From: a virus | Lineage: Duplodnaviria; Caudoviricetes | Virus record (IMG/VR): IMGVR_UViG_3300021431_000076 | Location: 32,001 to 96,000 of that record | Strand: one strand, 5' to 3' | Length of the DNA stretch: 64,000 nucleotides | Part shown: positions 2,833-22,900 of the stretch, piece by piece | Position numbering within the stretch: the first letter of the stretch is position 1 | Layout of the letters: every line of letters begins with the position of its first letter | The notes under the pieces: generated by a model | The model's database searches: none | What the model saw: only the letters and a program-made list of their open reading frames with translations | What the model was told of the DNA's origin: nothing | Made by a program: the position numbers and the translations under genes

Positions 2833-4812
2833 ATGGCAGTTGTTGGAACTTCCGCTGCGCAGGAAAATGAAGTAGTACTGCGTGGTTATGAAAAAAATCC
2901 AATGCATAAACTTGCCGAGCAATTCTCCGATATTGCTCAGGCTGGTTTAAGTGAACAGGTTGATATTTTTAGTGAGCCAGGTAAGTTCTTTATGTCTAAC
3001 CTGCTTTCTAATAAAATGAAAAATTTCTTCATGCAGGAGACTTATGATGTTAATGATCCTGACATGACAGCAGATGCTGTAAATGAACACAACTCTATGC
3101 TTTCTGCTCTTTATGATAATGACGTAAAGGGTCTTTGCGAAGCTGCTCCTTTGGGTGCATATAACCCAGTAGTAGGTATCACCTTCCCAATGCATAAGAA
3201 TCTTCTTATGACAACAGTATTTGATAAAGGTGCTATTCCTAAAGACGTAGCAGCTGGTCCTCAGTTCACACTGACCATGGAGACTCGTACTCTCTATGCT
3301 CCAGATGGTACTGAGATTGATATGTTCCTGGAACAGAATAAGATTAAGGACATTGTTGAATCTGCTATTCCTCGTAAGGATATTATTATGGCAGTTCCAG
3401 AAGATCAGCAGACTAATGTTCTTAAACTTCTTGGTGCTGTTAATCAGACTATTGCCAATATCTCTCGTTCTACCAAAGTTACCAAACTAGTTTGCCCAAA
3501 TGTATACTGTGAAGCTGGTGATGAATACTTTGATCCAGTCACCAAAACAGTTCAGGTAGTTACTGCTGGTAATGAAGGTAATAAAGCAAAAGTAGTTGCT
3601 ATTGAACCAATTCGTTTTGTATCTAGCTATGGTCAATATGATAGAACTTTCCAGAAGAGAATCGACTTAGTTCTACCAACTAATGCTAATGGTGGTACTA
3701 AACAGCTTATCTTCCAGATTGCTGGTTCTATGCATAAAAATAGATTTACTTTCCTCTGCAGTGTTCCAGATACTGAGGTATCTCACCTGATTCTTTCTGC
3801 AGCTCTTGATGTATCTAGCGCAGCATATGAAACTCCAAAAGTAAAATGGTCTGCACGTACAGACTTCTTCGAGATTCCAGAGGCTCCGCACATTACTGTG
3901 ACCATCAGCCCTGAAGAAACTCGTGATATCCAGGCTATGTATAACATTAATCAGCTTACCAAGATCATGTCCATGATCAAGCTGACTCTTGTTAACTATA
4001 AAGATGATAAGATTCTTGAAAATCTTGATGAATCCTTCCTGAACCTCCCAGTTCAGAATAAGATTTCCAGTGCTTTCAACTTCGTACCTCCTGATGGGTT
4101 CCTTGGCTCCCATATCACTTGGAGATATGAAACCTTCATGGACCACCTTGATACTCAAGTAACTAACATGCTTCAGATTCTTAATGATGAGAACATGACT
4201 GTTACTATCTTTGGTCGTCCTGAACTGATTCGTAAGATTACTCCAAAACAGTATACTTACAGCACTCCTGCAAGCATTGGTCCTGTTATGCTCGACTACA
4301 AGAAGACTATTGTAAATACTTCTGATAATCGTGTATATCAGTTCATCAGCTCCAATAAACTTCGTAACGATAATAACCTGATCCTGATTCTTTGCCCACG
4401 CAACAGCAATCGTATTATCTATAAGATTTTCGATTATCAGCTCTATGTTGGTAATGAAATTCGCGACACTGTAAACTATCAGCTCCCAGCTGTAACTGCA
4501 TTCGAACGTTTCTTGTTCGTTCAGTATCAGCCTGTACAGGGTCGTATCAGAATCGTTAATCCTTCTGGCCTTAAAGAAGACATTGAAAACAACGAGCCAA
4601 TTGGTGATCGTGCTCTCAATGACTACACTGCTAACAAGCATGAATATGACTTTGGTGGCAAATGGGCTCCTAAAGAACAACTTCCTGGTACTACTAGAAG
4701 TGCTATTCTGCCTGCATCCAACGCGGCTAACGAATTCAAGGATGTTGCTCCACGTAACAACCAGTACGTTTATGCTCCGAACTATGCAGTTGATCAGCCT
4801 GACAACTTCTAA
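2833..4812 (+). CDS. Major capsid protein precursor
   Basis: 659 aa; codon usage typical of high expression; AACA-N6-TA promoter at 2715-2726; strong RBS; LCE^AAP maturation-like site; own terminator; resembles jumbo-phage capsid proteins. Confidence 0.8.
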   Translation: MAVVGTSAAQENEVVLRGYEKNPMHKLAEQFSDIAQAGLSEQVDIFSEPGKFFMSNLLSNKMKNFFMQETYDVNDPDMTADAVNEHNSMLSALYDNDVKGLCEAAPLGAYNPVVGITFPMHKNLLMTTVFDKGAIPKDVAAGPQFTLTMETRTLYAPDGTEIDMFLEQNKIKDIVESAIPRKDIIMAVPEDQQTNVLKLLGAVNQTIANISRSTKVTKLVCPNVYCEAGDEYFDPVTKTVQVVTAGNEGNKAKVVAIEPIRFVSSYGQYDRTFQKRIDLVLPTNANGGTKQLIFQIAGSMHKNRFTFLCSVPDTEVSHLILSAALDVSSAAYETPKVKWSARTDFFEIPEAPHITVTISPEETRDIQAMYNINQLTKIMSMIKLTLVNYKDDKILENLDESFLNLPVQNKISSAFNFVPPDGFLGSHITWRYETFMDHLDTQVTNMLQILNDENMTVTIFGRPELIRKITPKQYTYSTPASIGPVMLDYKKTIVNTSDNRVYQFISSNKLRNDNNLILILCPRNSNRIIYKIFDYQLYVGNEIRDTVNYQLPAVTAFERFLFVQYQPVQGRIRIVNPSGLKEDIENNEPIGDRALNDYTANKHEYDFGGKWAPKEQLPGTTRSAILPASNAANEFKDVAPRNNQYVYAPNYAVDQPDNF

Positions 4813-4839
4813 TTTGGATTTTAATATAAATAAAAACTT

Positions 4840-4870
4840 CCCAGTAGAGCAGAAATGCTCTACTGGGTTT
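4840..4870 (+). terminator. Intrinsic terminator after the capsid gene
   Basis: CCCAGTAGAGCA-GAAA-TGCTCTACTGGG followed by a T-run. Confidence 0.85.
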
Positions 4871-4900
4871 CATGTGTTTTAGTAAAAAGAAAAATAAATA

Positions 4901-4915
4901 TATATTATATGAATG
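4901..4915 (+). promoter_or_regulatory. Early-type phage promoter, representative copy (TATAYTAT-N5-TG)
   Basis: TATATTAT-atgaaT-G. Plus-strand copies at 12615, 12743, 17296, 21136, 31129, 51033 and 54032. Minus-strand copies at 12574, 23178, 28734, 45575, 50016, 50219, 59865, 60591, 61014 and 61299. Confidence 0.8.
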
Positions 4916-4960
4916 AAAGGAGAAATAAGAAAAAATAACTTAGAAAGGAGAGAAATGTAA

Positions 4961-7522
4961 ATGAAAACAAAAGACAAAAGCATTTTCAGAGAATACTTTT
5001 CTGAATTTGTAAAAAATCATTTGGTGCATAGTGATAATGAATCTTTGAGACGGATTGAAATATATGGTATTTTTAAATGCTACTGTGAGACAAAGTACCC
5101 ATCAGTTCAATTTGCTTGTCACTACTCATCTGTTTTTAGAGCAATAATAATGGATTCAGAATTCTTGAATTCAGAGTTATTATCAAGTGATAGGTTTTAC
5201 ACTTATTCAGTTTCTGTAGTTGGTTTTGAATATGATCCAAAATTAGTTCAAAGAAATATTGCAGAAATAAGGAGCTACGAGAGACAAAAGCCTTCTAGTG
5301 TAAAAAAGAAGAAAAAATCTCTTGGAGATAATGTTCCTGAAGAGTTGTTAAGTTCTGATTTTAATGCAAAAAATCTTTATAAAATATTCTTTGATTATTT
5401 CATTGATTCATTGAAACCATCTAATGACTTTTCTAAAGTTTTTACTATTGAATCGCTATATGAATTTTATGGTTTGTGGATAAAACATACTTTTCCAAAT
5501 AGCGAAAAGTATAAATATACATTCAACACATTTAGAAATTCATTTGGCTACATTATGAGAAAATTAGAAAAGAACTTAGGTGATGATTATATAATTCATT
5601 CTTTTCAGAATAAAATATATATGTTCATAGATTTTCCGTGTTTGCCTGAATTATCAGAACAGTGTAAAATAAAGAATCCATTAGATAGAGATCCAGAGTA
5701 CTTATTTGGGGGGAAGAAAAAAATGGTAAAAAGATCAGAAGCACAAAACGTATTCAATGACTTTACCCAATGCATTAAACCTGGAGGTGATAACACATTT
5801 ACCAGGATGCAGCTTTATGGTATTTATGAACAGTTCAATGATATTATGTCAGAGGTTCCTAGCGATACAAAATATCATAGGAATACTTTCAACCAGAAAC
5901 TAGAGAAGCTTGATATTCCTTGTGATTGTGTGACTAAGATAACTACATACAGAGGATTCGACCGTGAGTATAAGGAATATTTATACCACTGTGATATCAT
6001 CAACTTTAGTTATAACAAGGATTTATTGGTCAACTCTATAGCAATGTATAGAGAAGAAAATATCATGAGCAAATTCAAGAAGAATGCTTCTAAAATTCTT
6101 GATAACTTAAAGAAGAATGGCCCTGTTAAGATCATTCAACCTGCTGTTCAACTTCAACAACCTGATCCAAATTTTCAACAGGGTAAAGTAGATTTGCAAC
6201 CTCTTTATCCCACTCCTGTTCCAGTTATTTCAGATACAGAATCTGCAAATGACTTATATTCTAAGGTTAGGAAATATGGGGATTTCCATGCCAAAGGGGA
6301 TAATAATAGTGTCTTCCAGTTTATGGAAGATGAAAATTACAGTAGGTCATTCTCTAAAGATGAGTATATGCAATTTAAGAAATTGTATGTTGCTTATCTT
6401 AAATATTGTAATAAGAAAGGATATCTTCCTATATCTCGTGTAGGATTTAAGAGTATTATGGAAGATCATACTTATGTTATTGAGAAGAGGGGAGGAACTT
6501 TATTCATCAATGTAAATAAAATCACTCCTGTTGAAGTTGGTAAAGAAGTAGTAGTAGATTCAGCAAAGCCAGAAGTTGTTGAACAAGTAAAAGAAGAGAA
6601 TAAAGATATGGAAATTGAAAAAGCAGTAGAAATTCTTGGCGGTCTTAAAGTATTCAACTTTAAGTTCAAGCCTATAGAAACTCCAGATGTTCCTAAAGAA
6701 CGTCTTCAAGAGATTGACCATTTTGTTAGGGATAACTTTATGCGCAAGTATACTCAATATTCTGAAGATGGAAAAGCTACTTACGACACTAAGAAGCTTT
6801 ATGCATCTTTCAAATATTATACTAAAGATAAAGATATCACTTTCAATCAATTCAGATATGTGCTTTCGCATATACCTGCAGCTAGGCTGACAACATCAGA
6901 AGATCACACAAAAGAATTTTCTGCATTAATTCCAGAATTCTACTTCTTAGCTCATATACATGATAGAGATGTAGAAAATGGAATTCCTATTACAGTCGAT
7001 AGATATAATACAAGAGTGCTTAAAGCTAAAGCAGAGATTATCAAGATCTATCAAGATCTTAAAGAGAATAATGGTTTTGATGATCCTGTTGTAGTGGAAG
7101 AGCCTGTTGTTGAAGAGAACAAGAAGGAGAAAGAAGTTGTAATACAGCAAGAACTTTTACATGAGGTCAAGGAAGAACCAAATGTAAACAAAGAAATCCA
7201 AAATAAAGAAGAGGTGATTGATACAGTTCCGCATGAGACTGATAATGAGGCACTTACCTCAATAAATTCAGCGATGGAAACTATTGAGCATGATTATGCT
7301 GGCGTTATACGCAAGTATAAAGCCTTAGAATCTATCAAACAAGTAATCAAAGAGGAACGAGTTAAGGTTCATGTTGATCTTAAACCGATTTTTGATATGC
7401 TTGTCAATAATGCTTTGACTAAGTTTGAAGGCATGAATCCGACTTTCCCATCATTTGATGAGGAAGTAGAAGATCTTAAAACTAATTTAAGAAATCTTTC
7501 AAGCTTTGTAAAGAAAGCATAA
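4961..7522 (+). CDS. Early protein with about 5 repeated winged-helix-like (D5/P4 primase C-terminal-like) domains
   Basis: Repeated pattern F..F.......LY..Y..(F/W/Y)......F; early promoter at 4901; terminator at 7531-7559. Confidence 0.55.
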   Translation: MKTKDKSIFREYFSEFVKNHLVHSDNESLRRIEIYGIFKCYCETKYPSVQFACHYSSVFRAIIMDSEFLNSELLSSDRFYTYSVSVVGFEYDPKLVQRNIAEIRSYERQKPSSVKKKKKSLGDNVPEELLSSDFNAKNLYKIFFDYFIDSLKPSNDFSKVFTIESLYEFYGLWIKHTFPNSEKYKYTFNTFRNSFGYIMRKLEKNLGDDYIIHSFQNKIYMFIDFPCLPELSEQCKIKNPLDRDPEYLFGGKKKMVKRSEAQNVFNDFTQCIKPGGDNTFTRMQLYGIYEQFNDIMSEVPSDTKYHRNTFNQKLEKLDIPCDCVTKITTYRGFDREYKEYLYHCDIINFSYNKDLLVNSIAMYREENIMSKFKKNASKILDNLKKNGPVKIIQPAVQLQQPDPNFQQGKVDLQPLYPTPVPVISDTESANDLYSKVRKYGDFHAKGDNNSVFQFMEDENYSRSFSKDEYMQFKKLYVAYLKYCNKKGYLPISRVGFKSIMEDHTYVIEKRGGTLFINVNKITPVEVGKEVVVDSAKPEVVEQVKEENKDMEIEKAVEILGGLKVFNFKFKPIETPDVPKERLQEIDHFVRDNFMRKYTQYSEDGKATYDTKKLYASFKYYTKDKDITFNQFRYVLSHIPAARLTTSEDHTKEFSALIPEFYFLAHIHDRDVENGIPITVDRYNTRVLKAKAEIIKIYQDLKENNGFDDPVVVEEPVVEENKKEKEVVIQQELLHEVKEEPNVNKEIQNKEEVIDTVPHETDNEALTSINSAMETIEHDYAGVIRKYKALESIKQVIKEERVKVHVDLKPIFDMLVNNALTKFEGMNPTFPSFDEEVEDLKTNLRNLSSFVKKA

Positions 7523-7578
7523 TTAAAATTAGAACTGGTGGAAACACCAGTTCTTTTTTATTATTAGGGGGTAAAAGA

Positions 7579-8298
7579 ATGGAAAATCCAGAAAAGATGG
7601 CAGGGTTACAAGATTTTATTACTAATGCTTGTAATCAAGATGCTGGTACGAAAGTGAGGTTAGCCGATCTATATAAGTCTTATAATCTGTTCACTAAGGA
7701 GATATCTATGCAACCATATTCTAGAACTACTTTTAGAGAGCACATTAATCATCTATTTAAGATTAAGAAAGATCCAGAAACTAATACTATGATAGTATCT
7801 GGAATTAAACCTAAAGATGAACAACAGAAAGAATTTAAACTTAATCCAGATGAGGTTGCTAAGGCTAGTATAGAGGAGGCTAAATCAGATATGATAGTAG
7901 AAGAAGCAGAGACTAAAGTATCTCCAGATGAAGAATGGGCAGAAAAGATGAAAAAACAAATAGAAGGTATAAAGAAAGAAGATCTAATTACTGAAATCCA
8001 ACAACCAGTAATGCCTAAATTTAAAACTAATGATGAGATTAAAGAAGAGTTGGCCACACCTTTCTTAATATCCTCTTCTAATACTAAAGCATATATAGAC
8101 AATCTTAAAGAACAAAGAAAGCTTATAGATAAGAAGATATCTGTTATGTATAAACTAGATGCTCTTAAGGAGATTACTGATAAGCTATTCTCTGGTACTA
8201 TGACTAATATGGCTAATATAAACAATAGTAAAGATATAGATTCTCTTTCCTCTAAGATCTCTGATGCTATTAGAATCATTGCTGATGTAAAAATTTGA
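7579..8298 (+). CDS. Protein with one N-terminal winged-helix-like domain and a coiled-coil C-terminus
   Basis: LQDFITNAC...VRLADLYKSYNLF...SRTTFREHI resembles the repeats in 4961..7522. Confidence 0.55.
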   Translation: MENPEKMAGLQDFITNACNQDAGTKVRLADLYKSYNLFTKEISMQPYSRTTFREHINHLFKIKKDPETNTMIVSGIKPKDEQQKEFKLNPDEVAKASIEEAKSDMIVEEAETKVSPDEEWAEKMKKQIEGIKKEDLITEIQQPVMPKFKTNDEIKEELATPFLISSSNTKAYIDNLKEQRKLIDKKISVMYKLDALKEITDKLFSGTMTNMANINNSKDIDSLSSKISDAIRIIADVKI

Positions 8299-8366
8299 CA
8301 AGGAGTTGCTCTAGAGGATTTCTCCTCTAGAGCGTAGCATTTTGGAAACCAGTTAGTTCTGAACTA

Positions 8367-8540
8367 TTATTTTGTTCTGTGTAATTTCTTTTTTAAATCT
8401 ATTGGTTCCATAGCAGAGTTAGAACCTATGCACATTGCTACTTTCTTTGGTTCAACCCATTTCTTAGGTTGAGGATTAACTACTTTATTAGCAGTATAAT
8501 CATTTAAAGCTCTTGGACCAATGAAATCTTTATCTTCCAT
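8367..8540 (-). CDS. 57-aa mini-protein homologous to the major capsid protein C-terminal arm (not in the ORF track)
   Basis: MEDKDFIGPRALNDYTANKVVNPQPKKWVEPKKVAMCIGSNSAMEPIDLKKKLHRTK; AAGGAGG RBS 8 nt upstream; tandem TAA TAG stops; hairpin at 8308-8333 downstream. Confidence 0.85.
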   Translation of the reverse strand: MEDKDFIGPRALNDYTANKVVNPQPKKWVEPKKVAMCIGSNSAMEPIDLKKKLHRTK

Positions 8541-8648
8541 ATTAATACCTCCTTATATTTTATGTATCAATTAACAATATATTAGTCGAATCCAAGAGAG
8601 ATTCGTCTTAAATATTCACCATAATTCTATTTAAAGGAGGAATTTTTC

Positions 8649-9236
8649 ATGGCAGTAGGTGCATGGGAAATTAAGTTTTCTACAAATTATCCACAGTTGG
8701 TTGCTACTGCAGTCAGCAAAGTAACAGAAGGTCTTTTAGGTGCTGATTATAATGCTGTTGCTTATCTTGGCAAACAGATTGTAAATGGTACTAACCATGC
8801 TGTTCTTGCTGAACAGACTATTCTAAATGGTAAAGATACTAAGAATGCTGTAGTAATAGTATTCAACGAAAAACCAGGTTCTCTTGATGTTTCTCTTAAT
8901 TCCATCAATACCATTCTTAAAGGTGGTGCTGAATTTGGTGGTGTTAAAGTAGATGTTACTGCAGATCTTACAGAAGAAGATAAAGCAGTATTCGCTAAAG
9001 CTAAAGAAGGTTATGTTGGTGCTAGCCTAGAACCAGTTGCTCTGCTTGGTAAACAGGTTGTTCGTGGCCTCAATTACATTTTCCTCGTTGAGATGAATCC
9101 AGTTGTTTTGAATCCTATAAAGACATATGCTATGGTTACAGTAAATCTCTTCGAGAACGTTGCTACCATTACTGACATTAAACCTTTTGATAATGGTCAG
9201 AATAATGGTGGCTTTGGCTATGCTTTTACTTGGTAA
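8649..9236 (+). CDS. Tandem two-domain cystatin-like protein
   Basis: Two QxVxG motifs (LGKQIVNGTNH, LGKQVVRGLNY), each preceded by an N-terminal Gly motif and a helix; late promoter at 8573; strong RBS. Confidence 0.6.
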   Translation: MAVGAWEIKFSTNYPQLVATAVSKVTEGLLGADYNAVAYLGKQIVNGTNHAVLAEQTILNGKDTKNAVVIVFNEKPGSLDVSLNSINTILKGGAEFGGVKVDVTADLTEEDKAVFAKAKEGYVGASLEPVALLGKQVVRGLNYIFLVEMNPVVLNPIKTYAMVTVNLFENVATITDIKPFDNGQNNGGFGYAFTW

Positions 9237-9384: not shown

Positions 9385-10551
9385 ATGAACGATAATTCTA
9401 GACTCAATAGATTAGAAGACTTGTTTGATGAAGTAAGTGAATCTATTGGTATGATTAAAATAGACCATAGTTTAAAAAATTTAGATAGTCTGGCTCAATC
9501 TTTAAACAAATTCTTCGCAGGTACAAAATGTAATAGAGTAATCTACACTTATAATCCAGATAAGATTCCATTTTGTGTAAGTGTAATGCCAATAGTAGAT
9601 GCAGATGATGTAATTAGAACCATTCAATCTGATTATAAACTTATTGTAAAAGAATATAATGTAGAATTGGATTCTAGACTATTTGAAGAAGATGTAAAAC
9701 TAACTGATGATGAGATTACTGCTTTGGTAATTCATGATATTGCTGCTATGACATCTGATTCTTCTCCAGCAGAAGAAGTAAAAAGAGCTCTTGATAAATA
9801 TCTACAAGATAATCATGAAGTATTGAAACTTTCTGATTCCATCCATTATAAAGAGATGCTTTCTTATGGATTTAGAGATGCTATGAGAAAAGTTACTACT
9901 GCATTTGAGAAAGCAGAAACTACAGATACTGATATTACATTATTTGAATTACTCCCACCAACTTATGCAGGATACTATAGATCTGGTTTTGAGAAAGTAG
10001 AAAAACAGTTATTAGTATATAATGCTGTAGCTAATACTAAGTTCTTGGTACTCTCTTGGGTCATGAGACTATATAAAGATGTACTCCATAATAGAATAGC
10101 AGCATTACATACTATTGCTAAATGTATGGAAATGACCCCATCACAACTAGAGAAGAAAGAACTATCTAATCTTGCTAGAAGATTAAATAGAATTGATGAT
10201 GATTCTCTATTAGAATCTACTTTACTTACTGAAGCAAGAAATAGTTTATATGATAAACTTACTATGCCATTGGAGAAATGTGATGATACTTGCAGTAATC
10301 TTAAATTAAGAGTTGAAAATTGTGATGATAATGATGAAGCTTGTGATCTAACTCATTCTATTAATGGACAACTTAGTTTAATGGATGATTATGTTAAAAA
10401 TACAAGTATGAATAAAAATGAATACAACCAGTGGAATGATATGTTCAAAAGTCTAGTTAAAGCTAGACATCAACTTACTGGTTCTAGAGCTACATTTTTT
10501 GCTAAACAACAAAAAATGTATAATACTTGGAAAGGTCAGGTGGATCAGTAA
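9385..10551 (+). CDS. Probable virion structural protein
   Basis: 388 aa; late promoter at 9344; LLES/LTEA protease-site-like motifs; degenerate HDIAA where the next gene has HEIGH. Confidence 0.55.
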   Translation: MNDNSRLNRLEDLFDEVSESIGMIKIDHSLKNLDSLAQSLNKFFAGTKCNRVIYTYNPDKIPFCVSVMPIVDADDVIRTIQSDYKLIVKEYNVELDSRLFEEDVKLTDDEITALVIHDIAAMTSDSSPAEEVKRALDKYLQDNHEVLKLSDSIHYKEMLSYGFRDAMRKVTTAFEKAETTDTDITLFELLPPTYAGYYRSGFEKVEKQLLVYNAVANTKFLVLSWVMRLYKDVLHNRIAALHTIAKCMEMTPSQLEKKELSNLARRLNRIDDDSLLESTLLTEARNSLYDKLTMPLEKCDDTCSNLKLRVENCDDNDEACDLTHSINGQLSLMDDYVKNTSMNKNEYNQWNDMFKSLVKARHQLTGSRATFFAKQQKMYNTWKGQVDQ

Positions 10552-13740: not shown

Positions 13741-14448
13741 ATGCTTTCAGATTTAATACATGGAAGAGCATCTATAAGAGTAGATCCTAATAAAAAGGGA
13801 AGAGAATTTAAATATATTCTTTGTTCTTTTGAAAGTCTATTTGATATAGATATTGGTTGTGTTGCTTATATCTTAATTTCTTTTAAAGATAGTAAGTATA
13901 TCAAACCAGAAGCATATAACTATACTCCATTATTTGTTCAATATCAATTAGTTCATAGAGACTCTATTAATCCATTATCTATCATCTTTAAAGATGAATA
14001 TAAGGACCAAATAGATAATCTGTATAATGAATTGCTAGATAATAAGAAAGATGACATTATCAAATTATCATATCAAACTTATCTAGCAGTTTTAGTAGAT
14101 CAATTAAAGATAATGGGTGGATATACTATTGAAGTTGAATGTGAATCAGATATTGAAAAAGAAAAAGTATCTAAATTAGGTTTAACTCCAGTAGATTACC
14201 AAGAAAACTTAGATAAGTATTTTACTCTAATTTTAAAATCTCCAAAAGATTTAAAAGATAGGTTACTGTTTACCGGCAAAACTGTATATCTATGGAATAC
14301 TTCTATCAATTATTTTGATATGAAGAAAGGTGTAGAGAATGAAATACTTACAGATGAGATCATAGCTCTTATGGGTCAGAAAAATGTAATAAAGATGATA
14401 GACCCTTATCAATATACAGAAGAGCTTGATGATAATAAGGAGGAATAA
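13741..14448 (+). CDS. Hypothetical protein
   Basis: 235-aa ORF with RBS; adjoins the chaperonin gene. Confidence 0.6.
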   Translation: MLSDLIHGRASIRVDPNKKGREFKYILCSFESLFDIDIGCVAYILISFKDSKYIKPEAYNYTPLFVQYQLVHRDSINPLSIIFKDEYKDQIDNLYNELLDNKKDDIIKLSYQTYLAVLVDQLKIMGGYTIEVECESDIEKEKVSKLGLTPVDYQENLDKYFTLILKSPKDLKDRLLFTGKTVYLWNTSINYFDMKKGVENEILTDEIIALMGQKNVIKMIDPYQYTEELDDNKEE

Positions 14449-14452
14449 CAAC

Positions 14453-16351
14453 ATGGCTTTTAATCTAGTCACAAATGTAGTAGATGAAACTCAATTAAGA
14501 CAAGCTCAACTTAGAGCTCTTGAATTATTTGCAACTACTGTAAGAGGCACTTATGGTCCTATGGGTGAATATACTGCTTATAGTATGCAAGATCCATCTA
14601 ATAAACTTAAAGCTATTGTATCTTACTATACTAAAGATGGTTTTACCGTATTAAAACATGTAGATACTGATAAACCAATAGAATCTCTTCTTAAAGATGA
14701 TATTCGTACTATTTGTACTCATGTTATTAAGACTATTGGTGACGGTACTACATCTGCTACTATATTATCATATCTTATCTTTAAAGGTCTTTTGGATCTT
14801 CAGTATCAGAAAAAACTTCCCAAAAGAAAGATTATCAAAGCATTCAAAGAAATTATTAAAGAAGGTATTGCAGAAATTGAATCTAAGGGAAGAGAATGTA
14901 CAGTAGATGATATCTATAATATCGCGTATACATCTCTTAATGGTAATGAAGAGATGGCTAATATTATAACAGATATTTATAAAGAGAGTGGTATGGATGT
15001 ATTTATTGATGTAAGCGCATCCAATACTAAAGATACTGTGGTTAAGACTTATAATTCTCTTGCTTATGAAGCAGGATATATAGATCCATGCTTTATCAAT
15101 AATGAACAAGATAATACTGTAGATTACCGCAATCCTCATATCTATGTATTTGAATCTCCTATTGACACTCCAGATATGATTAATACTCTTAAATTGATTT
15201 TCATGAAAGAAGTTAAAGATCCTATTGAAAAATATCAGCAAGCATTAAATAAAGGCAAACAACCAGATATTTCTTTGTCTCCAGTATTGATTATTTGTCC
15301 TCATATTTCTAGAGATGCCAATAGCTTCATTGATCAACTCATTGTAGAGTTTACTAATATGAAGATGGCTCAACGTCCTCAATTCTGTATTGTATCTAAT
15401 ATTGATAACGACAATGGATATCTTTTAGATATTATGAAACTCACTGAAGCTAAGTTCATTAAGAAATATATTGACAAAGAATCTTATGAAATTGATAAGA
15501 AAGTTGGTCTAGCTCCTAATGAACTAAATATTAGAACATTTGCTGGTACTGCAGAACGTGTAGTAGTAGATGCTCTTACTACTAAGATTATCAATCCAAA
15601 ACAGATGTATGATGAAAATGGTGAGTATACAGAGTTTTATACTAACTATATCAAACAATTAGAAGATCTTCTTAAGAAGTACGAAGAAACTAGAGAAGAG
15701 ATTGTTAAGATAGGTAAGCTCAAGAGACGTATCAATATTATCAAAGCAAATATGGTAGATCTCTATGTAGGTGGTATTGGCACTACAGATAGAATGGCTT
15801 TATCAGATTCTGTAGAAGATGCTGTTCTTAACTGTCGTTCTGCTGCTGCTGATGGTGTTGGTTATGCAGCAAACTATGAAGGTTTAAGAGCATTCAATAA
15901 GATTCTTACTAAATATGATGCTGAATTTAAAGCAGCAGAAGATAGTAAGCAAGCTCTTATTAACAAAGAAGTAGCAACAGTTATAGCTAAATCTTACTTA
16001 GACCTTTGTGCTCTTATCTATGTACCTTATTGTGATGATAATATTGAAGATGCTATGAATATAGTAGTTCTATCTTTAGCAAATTCTAATGAAAATAAGA
16101 GAAAACCGTTTAATATTTTGACAGAGGAGTATGATGATCTTGTGCTCACTTCTATCAAAACTGAACCAGCTATCCTCGAAGCTATATCTCGTATTATCAC
16201 TACTCTTTACAATACTAATCAGTTCTTGGTTCCTGATCCAAGATTCAATATCTACCAAATGGATAAAGATGATGAAGAGTATAAGAAACAAAAAGAAGAA
16301 ATGAATAAAGTAGAACAGAAACCTGCTCCTTCTGATGGAATGAAAAAATAA
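14453..16351 (+). CDS. groEL: GroEL-like phage chaperonin
   Basis: TYGPMG, TKDGFTV, GDGTTSAT and VEDAVL motifs; start moved to ATG 14453 behind AAGGAGG. Confidence 0.93.
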   Translation: MAFNLVTNVVDETQLRQAQLRALELFATTVRGTYGPMGEYTAYSMQDPSNKLKAIVSYYTKDGFTVLKHVDTDKPIESLLKDDIRTICTHVIKTIGDGTTSATILSYLIFKGLLDLQYQKKLPKRKIIKAFKEIIKEGIAEIESKGRECTVDDIYNIAYTSLNGNEEMANIITDIYKESGMDVFIDVSASNTKDTVVKTYNSLAYEAGYIDPCFINNEQDNTVDYRNPHIYVFESPIDTPDMINTLKLIFMKEVKDPIEKYQQALNKGKQPDISLSPVLIICPHISRDANSFIDQLIVEFTNMKMAQRPQFCIVSNIDNDNGYLLDIMKLTEAKFIKKYIDKESYEIDKKVGLAPNELNIRTFAGTAERVVVDALTTKIINPKQMYDENGEYTEFYTNYIKQLEDLLKKYEETREEIVKIGKLKRRINIIKANMVDLYVGGIGTTDRMALSDSVEDAVLNCRSAAADGVGYAANYEGLRAFNKILTKYDAEFKAAEDSKQALINKEVATVIAKSYLDLCALIYVPYCDDNIEDAMNIVVLSLANSNENKRKPFNILTEEYDDLVLTSIKTEPAILEAISRIITTLYNTNQFLVPDPRFNIYQMDKDDEEYKKQKEEMNKVEQKPAPSDGMKK

Positions 16352-21481: not shown

Positions 21482-22900
21482 ATGGGTTCTTTTACCAACA
21501 AGCATTACAATGAAACAGTACAAAGTTTAGTACAAGGATCACAAGATCGACTTAAAAACCCGTACTATCTTTTTTCTAATAAATCACCAACAGCTGTAAT
21601 GTATTATAATATAAATCATAAAATGTCTACATTAGATCAAGGAACTAGACAAGTATATGATCATATAGGAGAAAATTCTCCTTTAAGATTTAACAAGATT
21701 ATAGATTTTCAGTTATATGGTATTCCTAGGATAGAGATAGATTATAATGTTGGAGAATATGGTATAGAATCTCCAGTAGAAGGAGAAGCACTAATTCTTC
21801 CTAATACAGTAATACCATGTGTAGATGATATGTTCACTATCAACTATCTAGTTGATAAGCCAGTTATCTTTAGAGTATCAAAGGTATCTATAGATACATT
21901 GGATACAGGATCTAACTTTTATAGAATTCAATACTTTATAGATCGTGTAGATTTAGATGCTCTTAAGTATCTTAATGGTAAGCAGTTAATAAATGAGTAT
22001 GTATATAAGCCTGGTAATATAGGTTCTAATTTAGTATCTGTTATTGCTAAAAAGGATGCCGATATTATAGAGAAATTATCTGAGGCAGCTACAGAAATTC
22101 TACACTACTATGCTGATCTATTCTTTAAACCATCTATACAGACATTTTGTTATCTCTATACAGGGATATTTATCTATGATCCGTATTTGATTGAGTTCTT
22201 AATTAGGAATAAAGTATATGCTGTACCAGACAATGAATATTATATGTATATTTCTCAAGCAGTACATACTCCTAGAACTTTCAATATAGAATATGAACAC
22301 ACTATCTTTAGAGATATAGAAAAAAGAAATCCTAAATTAAGAACTAATTCTTGTTATATGGTTCCTTGTCATGATCCCAATAGTTTACTTATGAATAGAA
22401 TGGAAGACTATTTTGAATTATCTATTAATCTTAAGAATAAACCATTCTCTCCTCCTATCAATTGGTTGAATATGGAACTATTTGATAGAATAGTAAATAA
22501 TAATCTATACGACGTGGATGACCCAGATGCTCCTATATATAGAAATATCATTATCAGGTGGATGAATGATAAATCATACACTGTAACTGATGAAGAGTTA
22601 GAGAATCTTATCAATCTATCTTATCATCCATGCAAAGATCTATTCTATGAGATTCCTATTTTGTTATTTATTCTAAATGATATAGTAACTGGTTTACAAG
22701 TAGATCTTACTAACTTACCATCTAATGGTAATGGTGCTATTGGTAATACTTCTGCTATATCTACTACAAATGCATTAGCAGATGATATTACTGCCGATGA
22801 ATATGCTAATGGTGGAAATTGTAATAGAACTTGTATGTGTCCTAGAGGAGATACATATGAAAAACCAGGATCAGAAGATTCATATTTGACTGGTAGATAA
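21482..22900 (+). CDS. Probable virion structural protein
   Basis: 472 aa; late promoter at 21442; AAGGAGG RBS. Confidence 0.55.
   Translation: MGSFTNKHYNETVQSLVQGSQDRLKNPYYLFSNKSPTAVMYYNINHKMSTLDQGTRQVYDHIGENSPLRFNKIIDFQLYGIPRIEIDYNVGEYGIESPVEGEALILPNTVIPCVDDMFTINYLVDKPVIFRVSKVSIDTLDTGSNFYRIQYFIDRVDLDALKYLNGKQLINEYVYKPGNIGSNLVSVIAKKDADIIEKLSEAATEILHYYADLFFKPSIQTFCYLYTGIFIYDPYLIEFLIRNKVYAVPDNEYYMYISQAVHTPRTFNIEYEHTIFRDIEKRNPKLRTNSCYMVPCHDPNSLLMNRMEDYFELSINLKNKPFSPPINWLNMELFDRIVNNNLYDVDDPDAPIYRNIIIRWMNDKSYTVTDEELENLINLSYHPCKDLFYEIPILLFILNDIVTGLQVDLTNLPSNGNGAIGNTSAISTTNALADDITADEYANGGNCNRTCMCPRGDTYEKPGSEDSYLTGR

Follow-up and report, generated by a model that had tools for sequence, protein, structure and literature searches.

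A small gene encoding the major capsid protein C-terminal arm as a free-standing copy in the head-gene module of AR9/S6-like jumbo phages

The small gene and its neighbourhood

The window analysed here is a stretch of 64,000 nt, bases 32001–96000 of a viral record of 332,775 bp with a G+C content of 31%. On the minus strand, at nt 8367–8540, it carries a small protein gene, P0001, which specifies 57 aa plus a stop codon (ATG at nt 8538–8540, stop at nt 8367–8369). A Shine-Dalgarno box, AAGGAGG (nt 8548–8554, minus strand; cctcctt on the plus strand), is situated 7 nt 5' of the ATG, and no plus-strand ORF of at least 40 aa overlaps the gene. Small phage proteins mostly remain unannotated, and P0001 falls below the usual ORF cut-offs. 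Searches of Pfam and PHROGs with P0001 found no family, and a look-alike search of the ESM Atlas returned noise-level matches only (0.83).

The 3' side of the gene is marked by a hairpin with an 11-bp stem and a 4-nt loop (gctctagagga/tcctctagagc, nt 8308–8333), which lies 34 nt beyond the P0001 stop codon and 10 nt beyond that of a convergent plus-strand gene (nt 7579–8298), and is likely a bidirectional terminator common to both. A simple terminator scan did not call this hairpin because it has no U tract. A 12-mer, GGGATTTCTCCC, and its complement, GGGAGAAATCCC, are present in 9 copies each in the whole genome, and look like a recurring hairpin-loop (terminator) element resembling the one at nt 8308–8333.

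The major capsid protein (MCP, P0002; 659 aa, HK97 fold) is encoded on the plus strand at nt 2833–4812. It matches phrog_20655 over residues 351–579 (E = 1.7e-13), and the best Foldseek match to its AF2 model is the capsid of the Staphylococcus jumbo phage S6 (7x30, E = 8e-24), with phiKp24, phiKZ, P1 and T4 next in order. A profile comparison with the S6 MCP gave E = 1e-17. As the S6 protein ends at the equivalent of residue 578, residues 580–659 (nt 4570–4809, plus strand) represent an extra, clade-specific C-terminal tail, which also extends beyond the PHROG profile. Nearly all of residues 583–659 have a pLDDT below 50 in the monomer model, and the motifs of the tail are conserved across about 100 MCPs with variable linkers between them. 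Such a chain of short motifs, predicted to be disordered in the monomer, is characteristic of a docking arm that engages a second surface. When the MCP was compared with 50,697 isolated phage records by tblastn there was no match, and P0001 gave three chance-level matches only (E ≥0.3) against isolated phage records.

The conserved gene order of the region is portal-region genes, MCP, variable cargo, small gene, a gene for a 388-aa protein and, after further genes, a GroEL-like chaperonin. In the window the order runs MCP, cargo, peptide, one inserted gene and 388-aa gene, with the cargo consisting of genes for proteins of 853 and 239 aa (nt 4961–8298, plus strand). The 388-aa gene (nt 9385–10551, plus strand) directly adjoins the small gene in most relatives. 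Its product has an invariant D118 and an H117 that is conserved in at least 90% of sequences, finds no match in Pfam, PHROGs or among PDB folds, and has an AF2 model that consists largely of helices, apart from a small alpha/beta unit at the N-terminus. It was considered as a T4 gp24-like vertex paralogue without the arm, an idea that was rejected because of the helical model, the lack of a PDB fold match, and the absence of similarity to the MCP by BLASTP. The chaperonin (nt 14426–16351, plus strand) matches phrog_5725 (E = 1.6e-57; Cpn60_TCP1 in relatives) and every relative keeps it in the head-gene module, even where the MCP is tail-less.

The phage is an AR9/PBS1/S6-like jumbo phage. Its RNAP beta-like gene matches phrog_3015 (E = 6e-41), and 25 TATATATTAT-N6-G and 28 AACA-N6-TA sites are followed by an RBS and a start codon within 60 nt. 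The AR9-type promoter motifs are AAATATATATTAT-N6-G (early) and AACA-N6-TA/G (late; PMC5312081). Motifs of this type are spread over the whole genome (e.g. at window nt 4899 and 12613, plus strand). About 40 copies of TATATATTAT are found among the matches listed, 25 of them with a G at N6+1, and TTTCAGT often stands before them, while the AACA-N6-TA sites show CTATATA and then the RBS. The late motif is present at the MCP gene, and AACATATTGATA occurs about 120 nt upstream of that gene. Position weight matrices of the early (TATATATTAT-N6-G) and late (AACA-N6-TA) motifs of this phage found no match upstream of the small gene. A sigma-70-like sequence, TTGCCA-16-TATAAT (11/12; nt 8773–8746, minus strand), faces the small gene from inside the gene at nt 8649–9236, and may be due to chance.

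Relation of the peptide to the capsid arm

Residues 1–45 of P0001 align with MCP residues 584–634 (nt 4582–4734, plus strand), with 20 of 51 positions identical (BLASTP, single comparison, E = 3e-6). MCP residue 584 begins at nt 4582, in agreement with the preliminary description of this DNA, which put the start of the matching capsid sequence at about nt 4585. The string RALNDYTANK is the same in both proteins, yet 6 of its 10 codons differ, all of them synonymously. The preliminary description was right about these synonymous differences but had the two codon strings exchanged: aga gct tta aat gat tat belongs to P0001, and cgt gct ctc aat gac tac to the MCP gene.

The members of the small protein family are 43–68 aa in length and have an N-proximal motif, R-[AS]-[LM]-N-[DE]-Y-x-[AS]-x, to which residues 10–18 of P0001 (RALNDYTAN) conform. 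The second block of P0001, WVEPKKVAMCIGSNSAME, corresponds to [WF]-x-[EQ]-P-[KR]-K-[VST]-A-[MF]-x-I and, after it, S/A-P/A-G/M. Across an alignment of 47 sequences the R and N are invariant, while at least 90% of the sequences share the D, the Y and K33. When a profile was made from nothing but the 47 small proteins, it matched the MCP tails of all five other complete genomes (E = 2e-10 to 4e-5 per genome), and in each of these five it found exactly two places, the small gene and the MCP tail, and nothing else. Tails and peptides from ten phages can be aligned collinearly through four elements common to both: IG-x-RALNDYTAN(K), an aromatic-x-acidic element ([FW]-x-E), (R/K)-S/V-A-M/I, and A/S-P/A-G/M-E. 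The peptides carry the first three, and sometimes all four, of the short conserved motifs of the MCP arm, while the last tail motif, YxYAP, is kept in 6 of 45. The pairwise match, the peptide-only profile and the collinear motifs together bear out the original proposal that P0001 duplicates the MCP C-terminal arm as a protein of its own.

The two copies also differ. Motif 1 is more variable in the peptides than in the tails, and the peptides have a median net charge of +4 and a pI of 9.5, compared with -1 and 6.0 for the tails. The net charge of individual peptides spans -3 to +9, and the charge pattern has no fixed position. Since the peptide is basic while the tails are approximately neutral, it is no simple functional replica of the tail. 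A prohead-protease site within the S/A-x-E motif (SAME|P, AANE|F) was considered for these sequences and dropped because of variability at the Glu position, with SPGM or APGQ in many peptides and no Glu in the tails of two phages (L005 and L008).

When 30 peptides and 18 tails were placed in a maximum-likelihood tree, one branch parted all peptides from the tails (SH-aLRT 99), and all peptides have EPKK in common and lack an LPGT insertion. This topology fits one old duplication behind all of the peptides. The start of the peptides, MEN or MED, corresponds to IEN in the tails, and the change from Ile to Met can be reached by a single base substitution.

Tail and peptide of the same phage are more alike than expected from random pairing. 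In a permutation test across nine lineages, own pairs shared 122 identities at variable columns, compared with 103.5 ± 6.4 in shuffled pairs (p = 0.008), and the same permutation scored by BLOSUM gave p = 0.001. Co-variation of the peptide with the capsid tail of its own phage had been put forward beforehand as a check on the relationship, and the outcome, with p about 0.008, is modestly positive. A single lineage (L019, L053) contributes most of this signal; in it, tail and peptide both read FVS..RALNEY(S/T)SM, while every other lineage has IG.RALNDYTAN; with this lineage left out the co-variation is weak (p = 0.04–0.09 by identity). In L019 the third motif ends with APGxHIDxH in both copies, and the tail and peptide have 19 identical residues, of which only 9 are encoded by identical codons. 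Within RALNEY-SM, 7 of the 8 residues that are identical between the two copies use different codons. A further case is L056, where the Thr of the motif has been replaced in both copies (NDYYAN and NDYIAN). From these sequence comparisons, the likeness within pairs could have arisen either by co-evolution through a common partner or by old, partial gene conversion.

Distribution, conservation and expression of the small gene

The small gene is positioned between the MCP gene and the 388-aa gene in all 11 loci with a long MCP tail, and the peptide is absent from all 6 loci in which the tail is short or missing (L010, L013-15, L021-22). Among more distant relatives, the MCPs of L013-15 are S6-like and have no tail, those of P0162-165 and L021/22 have a tail with motif 1 only, and the tail of L010/11 is short and degenerate. 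A 99%-complete genome with a degenerate MCP tail has no copy of the small gene. In the short-tail and tail-less relatives the 388-aa gene follows directly after the MCP gene. Because the peptide accompanies the long tail and is missing from phages with short tails or none, the tail seems to be older than the peptide.

Although its position is kept, the small gene varies in its orientation and in the cargo that flanks it. In most phages it is convergent with the MCP gene, and in most genomes the late head genes occupy the other strand; in L016-18 the stops of the two genes are only 90 bp apart, around a single hairpin. In L008, L019, L053 and L056 the small gene is found on the MCP strand. The cargo interval (nt 4813–8366 in the window) ranges from 0 kb in L016, L019 and L056 to more than 6 kb in L026, and its genes differ from lineage to lineage. 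Equivalent gaps with variable cargo are present in L003, L005, L007, L008, L009, L012 and L026, and the cargo genes lying between MCP and peptide in six relatives had no Pfam matches.

Several other genes were observed in relatives. A fragment of a Cas12f1-like TNB (TnpB-type) gene is present near the head module of an NCBI MAG contig (L053, nt 21961–22139), and L021/L022 carry a gene for an RCC1-repeat protein (L021, nt 1458–2597). Just upstream of the small gene in two short contigs without an MCP (L023, nt 1382–2515; L024, nt 650–2137) is a gene for a Laminin_G_3-domain protein; the peptide of this lineage (P0029) has the motif NEYTSM together with FIG.

A search of 5.8 billion proteins recovered 10 close homologues of 54–64 aa, and when 1.84 billion cluster representatives were searched exhaustively with a profile, these grew to at least 35 clusters (50% identity), with every member 43–68 aa long. 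Scans of IMG/VR and JGI with the peptide profile added no lineage beyond those already found. In all of eight related phages, whose MCPs are 66–95% identical to the one described here, the frame is open and its ATG is preceded by an SD-like box, and a hairpin is usually present 3' of the peptide stop (seen in L009, L007, L003, L012 and L016). Pairs of orthologues show dN/dS values of 0.05–0.6 with saturated synonymous sites. Two points raised in the preliminary description are upheld by these data: that the 57-aa ORF is a genuine gene, given its retention in every long-tail relative and the dN/dS values, and that selection has acted on the peptide rather than on the DNA, given that synonymous sites are saturated between the copies as well. 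P0001 is a real, separately transcribed gene, and it belongs to a family found in a widespread clade of uncultured phages of 250–340 kb, in which it has been retained over a long period of evolution.

The codon usage of the small gene is that of the genome average, while the MCP tail shares the strong bias of the MCP body. In eight of eight phages the peptide scored between -0.38 and -1.1 bits per codon, while the MCP tail scored between +0.23 and +0.61. Genome-average codons indicate that synthesis of the peptide probably falls far short of that of the MCP, i.e. that it is probably sub-stoichiometric, with codon usage serving as an indirect proxy. The usage comparable with that of the MCP that would be expected of a stoichiometric component was not found, and this argues against a stoichiometric cement protein; a cement peptide was one of three functions put forward in the preliminary description, beside a defence decoy and a competitor in assembly.

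Possible roles of the free peptide

The following scheme is proposed. The 3' end of the MCP gene was partially duplicated, once, in an ancestor of one clade of AR9/S6-like jumbo phages, giving rise to a basic peptide of 43–68 aa that copies the motifs of the flexible C-terminal arm. We infer both the binding site of this peptide and its involvement in head assembly: it would bind the docking surface of the arm, which may be located on adjacent capsid subunits or on an assembly partner that arm and peptide share. Because it appears to be far scarcer than the MCP, it might serve as a low-copy, extra arm at lattice positions that are without an arm, such as may exist around the portal vertex, or it might compete transiently with the arm and so time or modulate the assembly of the head. 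That the free peptide uses the docking site of the arm, in head assembly or in the finished capsid, is suggested by the strict co-occurrence of peptide and long tail, the shared motifs and the concerted change, and we would give this reading a probability of roughly one half. A complex prediction with MCP residues 1–582 and the peptide, both entered as alignments, scored 0.13, short of a mark of 0.32, and speaks neither for nor against binding. If the peptide does occupy arm sites, this would be a new way to tune large capsid lattices.

Docking arms of a comparable kind are known from other jumbo phages. The C-terminal arm of the phiKZ MCP exits the A domain at the capsomer centre, forms six-helix bundles at the centres of hexamers, and at the pentons docks on a minor capsid protein, the vertex protein gp244 (PMC11297242); the MCP of Goslar has a short C-terminal arm (bioRxiv 10.64898/2026.04.21.720040). 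As in these proteins (phiKZ gp120 residues 728–747; phiKp24; Goslar), the arm described here would be a contact-making extension that follows the last A-domain strand of an HK97 fold. It is, however, about 80 aa long compared with about 20 in arms of the phiKZ type, has no sequence similarity to them, and is unique in being accompanied by a separately encoded, free copy. The nearest relative of solved structure, the S6 MCP, is without the arm.

Among minor capsid proteins, gp93 and gp162II of phiKZ are extended and fibre-like, and run along the MCPs to which they bind by strand addition (PMC11297242). These, and small cement or decoration proteins in general, resemble the proposed role of the peptide in being short or extended, without a globular fold, and bound to the MCP. 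These proteins differ in that they are not MCP paralogues and are virion proteins by direct evidence, and the codon usage of the peptide argues against a high copy number. In phage T7, protein 10B is a frameshifted form of 10A that bears a C-terminal extension and is made in minor amounts. It too is a second, minor product concerning the C-terminal extension of an MCP, but its extension is attached to the full protein, whereas the one described here is made alone from its own gene. No paper describing a free-standing gene for an MCP arm of this kind was found in the literature. Small accessory capsid peptides are known as a kind, and what is unusual here is the origin, a spun-off MCP arm: a structural gene has released an interaction arm of its own as an independent, selected product. 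The two paralogues, with four shared motifs and concerted change, also provide a natural experiment for mapping the docking site of the arm.

The arm may instead have a partner outside the capsid that recognises a linear motif of tail and peptide alike, and the peptide would titrate or regulate this partner. It could be a scaffold, the prohead protease or a host protein, or else the phage's own GroEL-like chaperonin, whose gene lies 6 kb downstream. Short linear motifs in a region predicted to be disordered are typical of partner binding, the parallel alteration of tail and peptide in one lineage fits a change in a common partner, and the low codon bias would suit a regulator; the chaperonin gene (phrog_5725) is, moreover, located in the same module in all relatives. 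However, the chaperonin, the genes of the protease region and the 388-aa gene are also present in relatives without tail and peptide, so that none of them tracks the pair, and no candidate was found. We regard a non-capsid partner as unlikely, if worth keeping in view. A peptide that competed for such a partner, or that blinded a sensor, would be a new kind of regulator.

The second of these possibilities leads to defence. Capsid-sensing defence systems exist (CapRel, Lit/Gol), and a host sensor of the exposed MCP arm could be occupied by the peptide without being activated, or be saturated early. The greater variability of motif 1 in the peptides, the proximity of the gene to a hot spot of variable cargo, its orientation, usually opposed to that of the late genes, and a codon usage that is not late-structural would all agree with an anti-defence decoy. 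Anti-defence genes, however, are typically patchy in distribution and as a rule expressed early, while this gene has a fixed position in the head-gene module of 11 of 11 long-tail phages from many samples; in addition, a molecule that copies a trigger should set off the sensor and not block it, and an early promoter was not found upstream of the small gene. A decoy of this type is improbable. We are equally doubtful of the related, broader notion that the peptide mimics the exposed arm and has co-evolved with it since one and the same external factor reads both. This factor would be either a host capsid sensor, which the peptide blinds, or an assembly checkpoint, which it sets, and the peptide would then be a genetically encoded 'arm decoy', representing a new class of phage regulator derived from a fragment of a structural gene.

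The basic character of the peptides (see above) raises the question of a packaged internal protein, in which a lysine-rich linker and C-terminus would bind nucleic acid while the arm motifs anchor the peptide to the inner face of the shell. The extended, fibre-like minor capsid proteins that line the shell of phiKZ and bind its MCPs by strand addition offer a parallel (PMC11297242). The position of the charge is not conserved in the family, and a net charge that varies between -3 and +9 speaks against this reading. The C-terminus of HK97-fold proteins usually emerges at the capsomer centre, as in phiKZ, and in other phages it is on the outside, which also counts against an anchor on the inner face. 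An internal role of this sort is improbable.

That P0001 is a chance ORF or a non-functional relic of the duplication, as might be supposed from its short length, its lack of a Pfam or PHROG family and the absence of a recognisable promoter, is effectively refuted by sequence conservation, as the frame is open with SD and start codon across phages whose MCPs are only 62–70% identical, synonymous sites are saturated with dN/dS below 1, the 35 diverged clusters are of uniform length, and the position of the gene is kept while its orientation and flanking cargo change.
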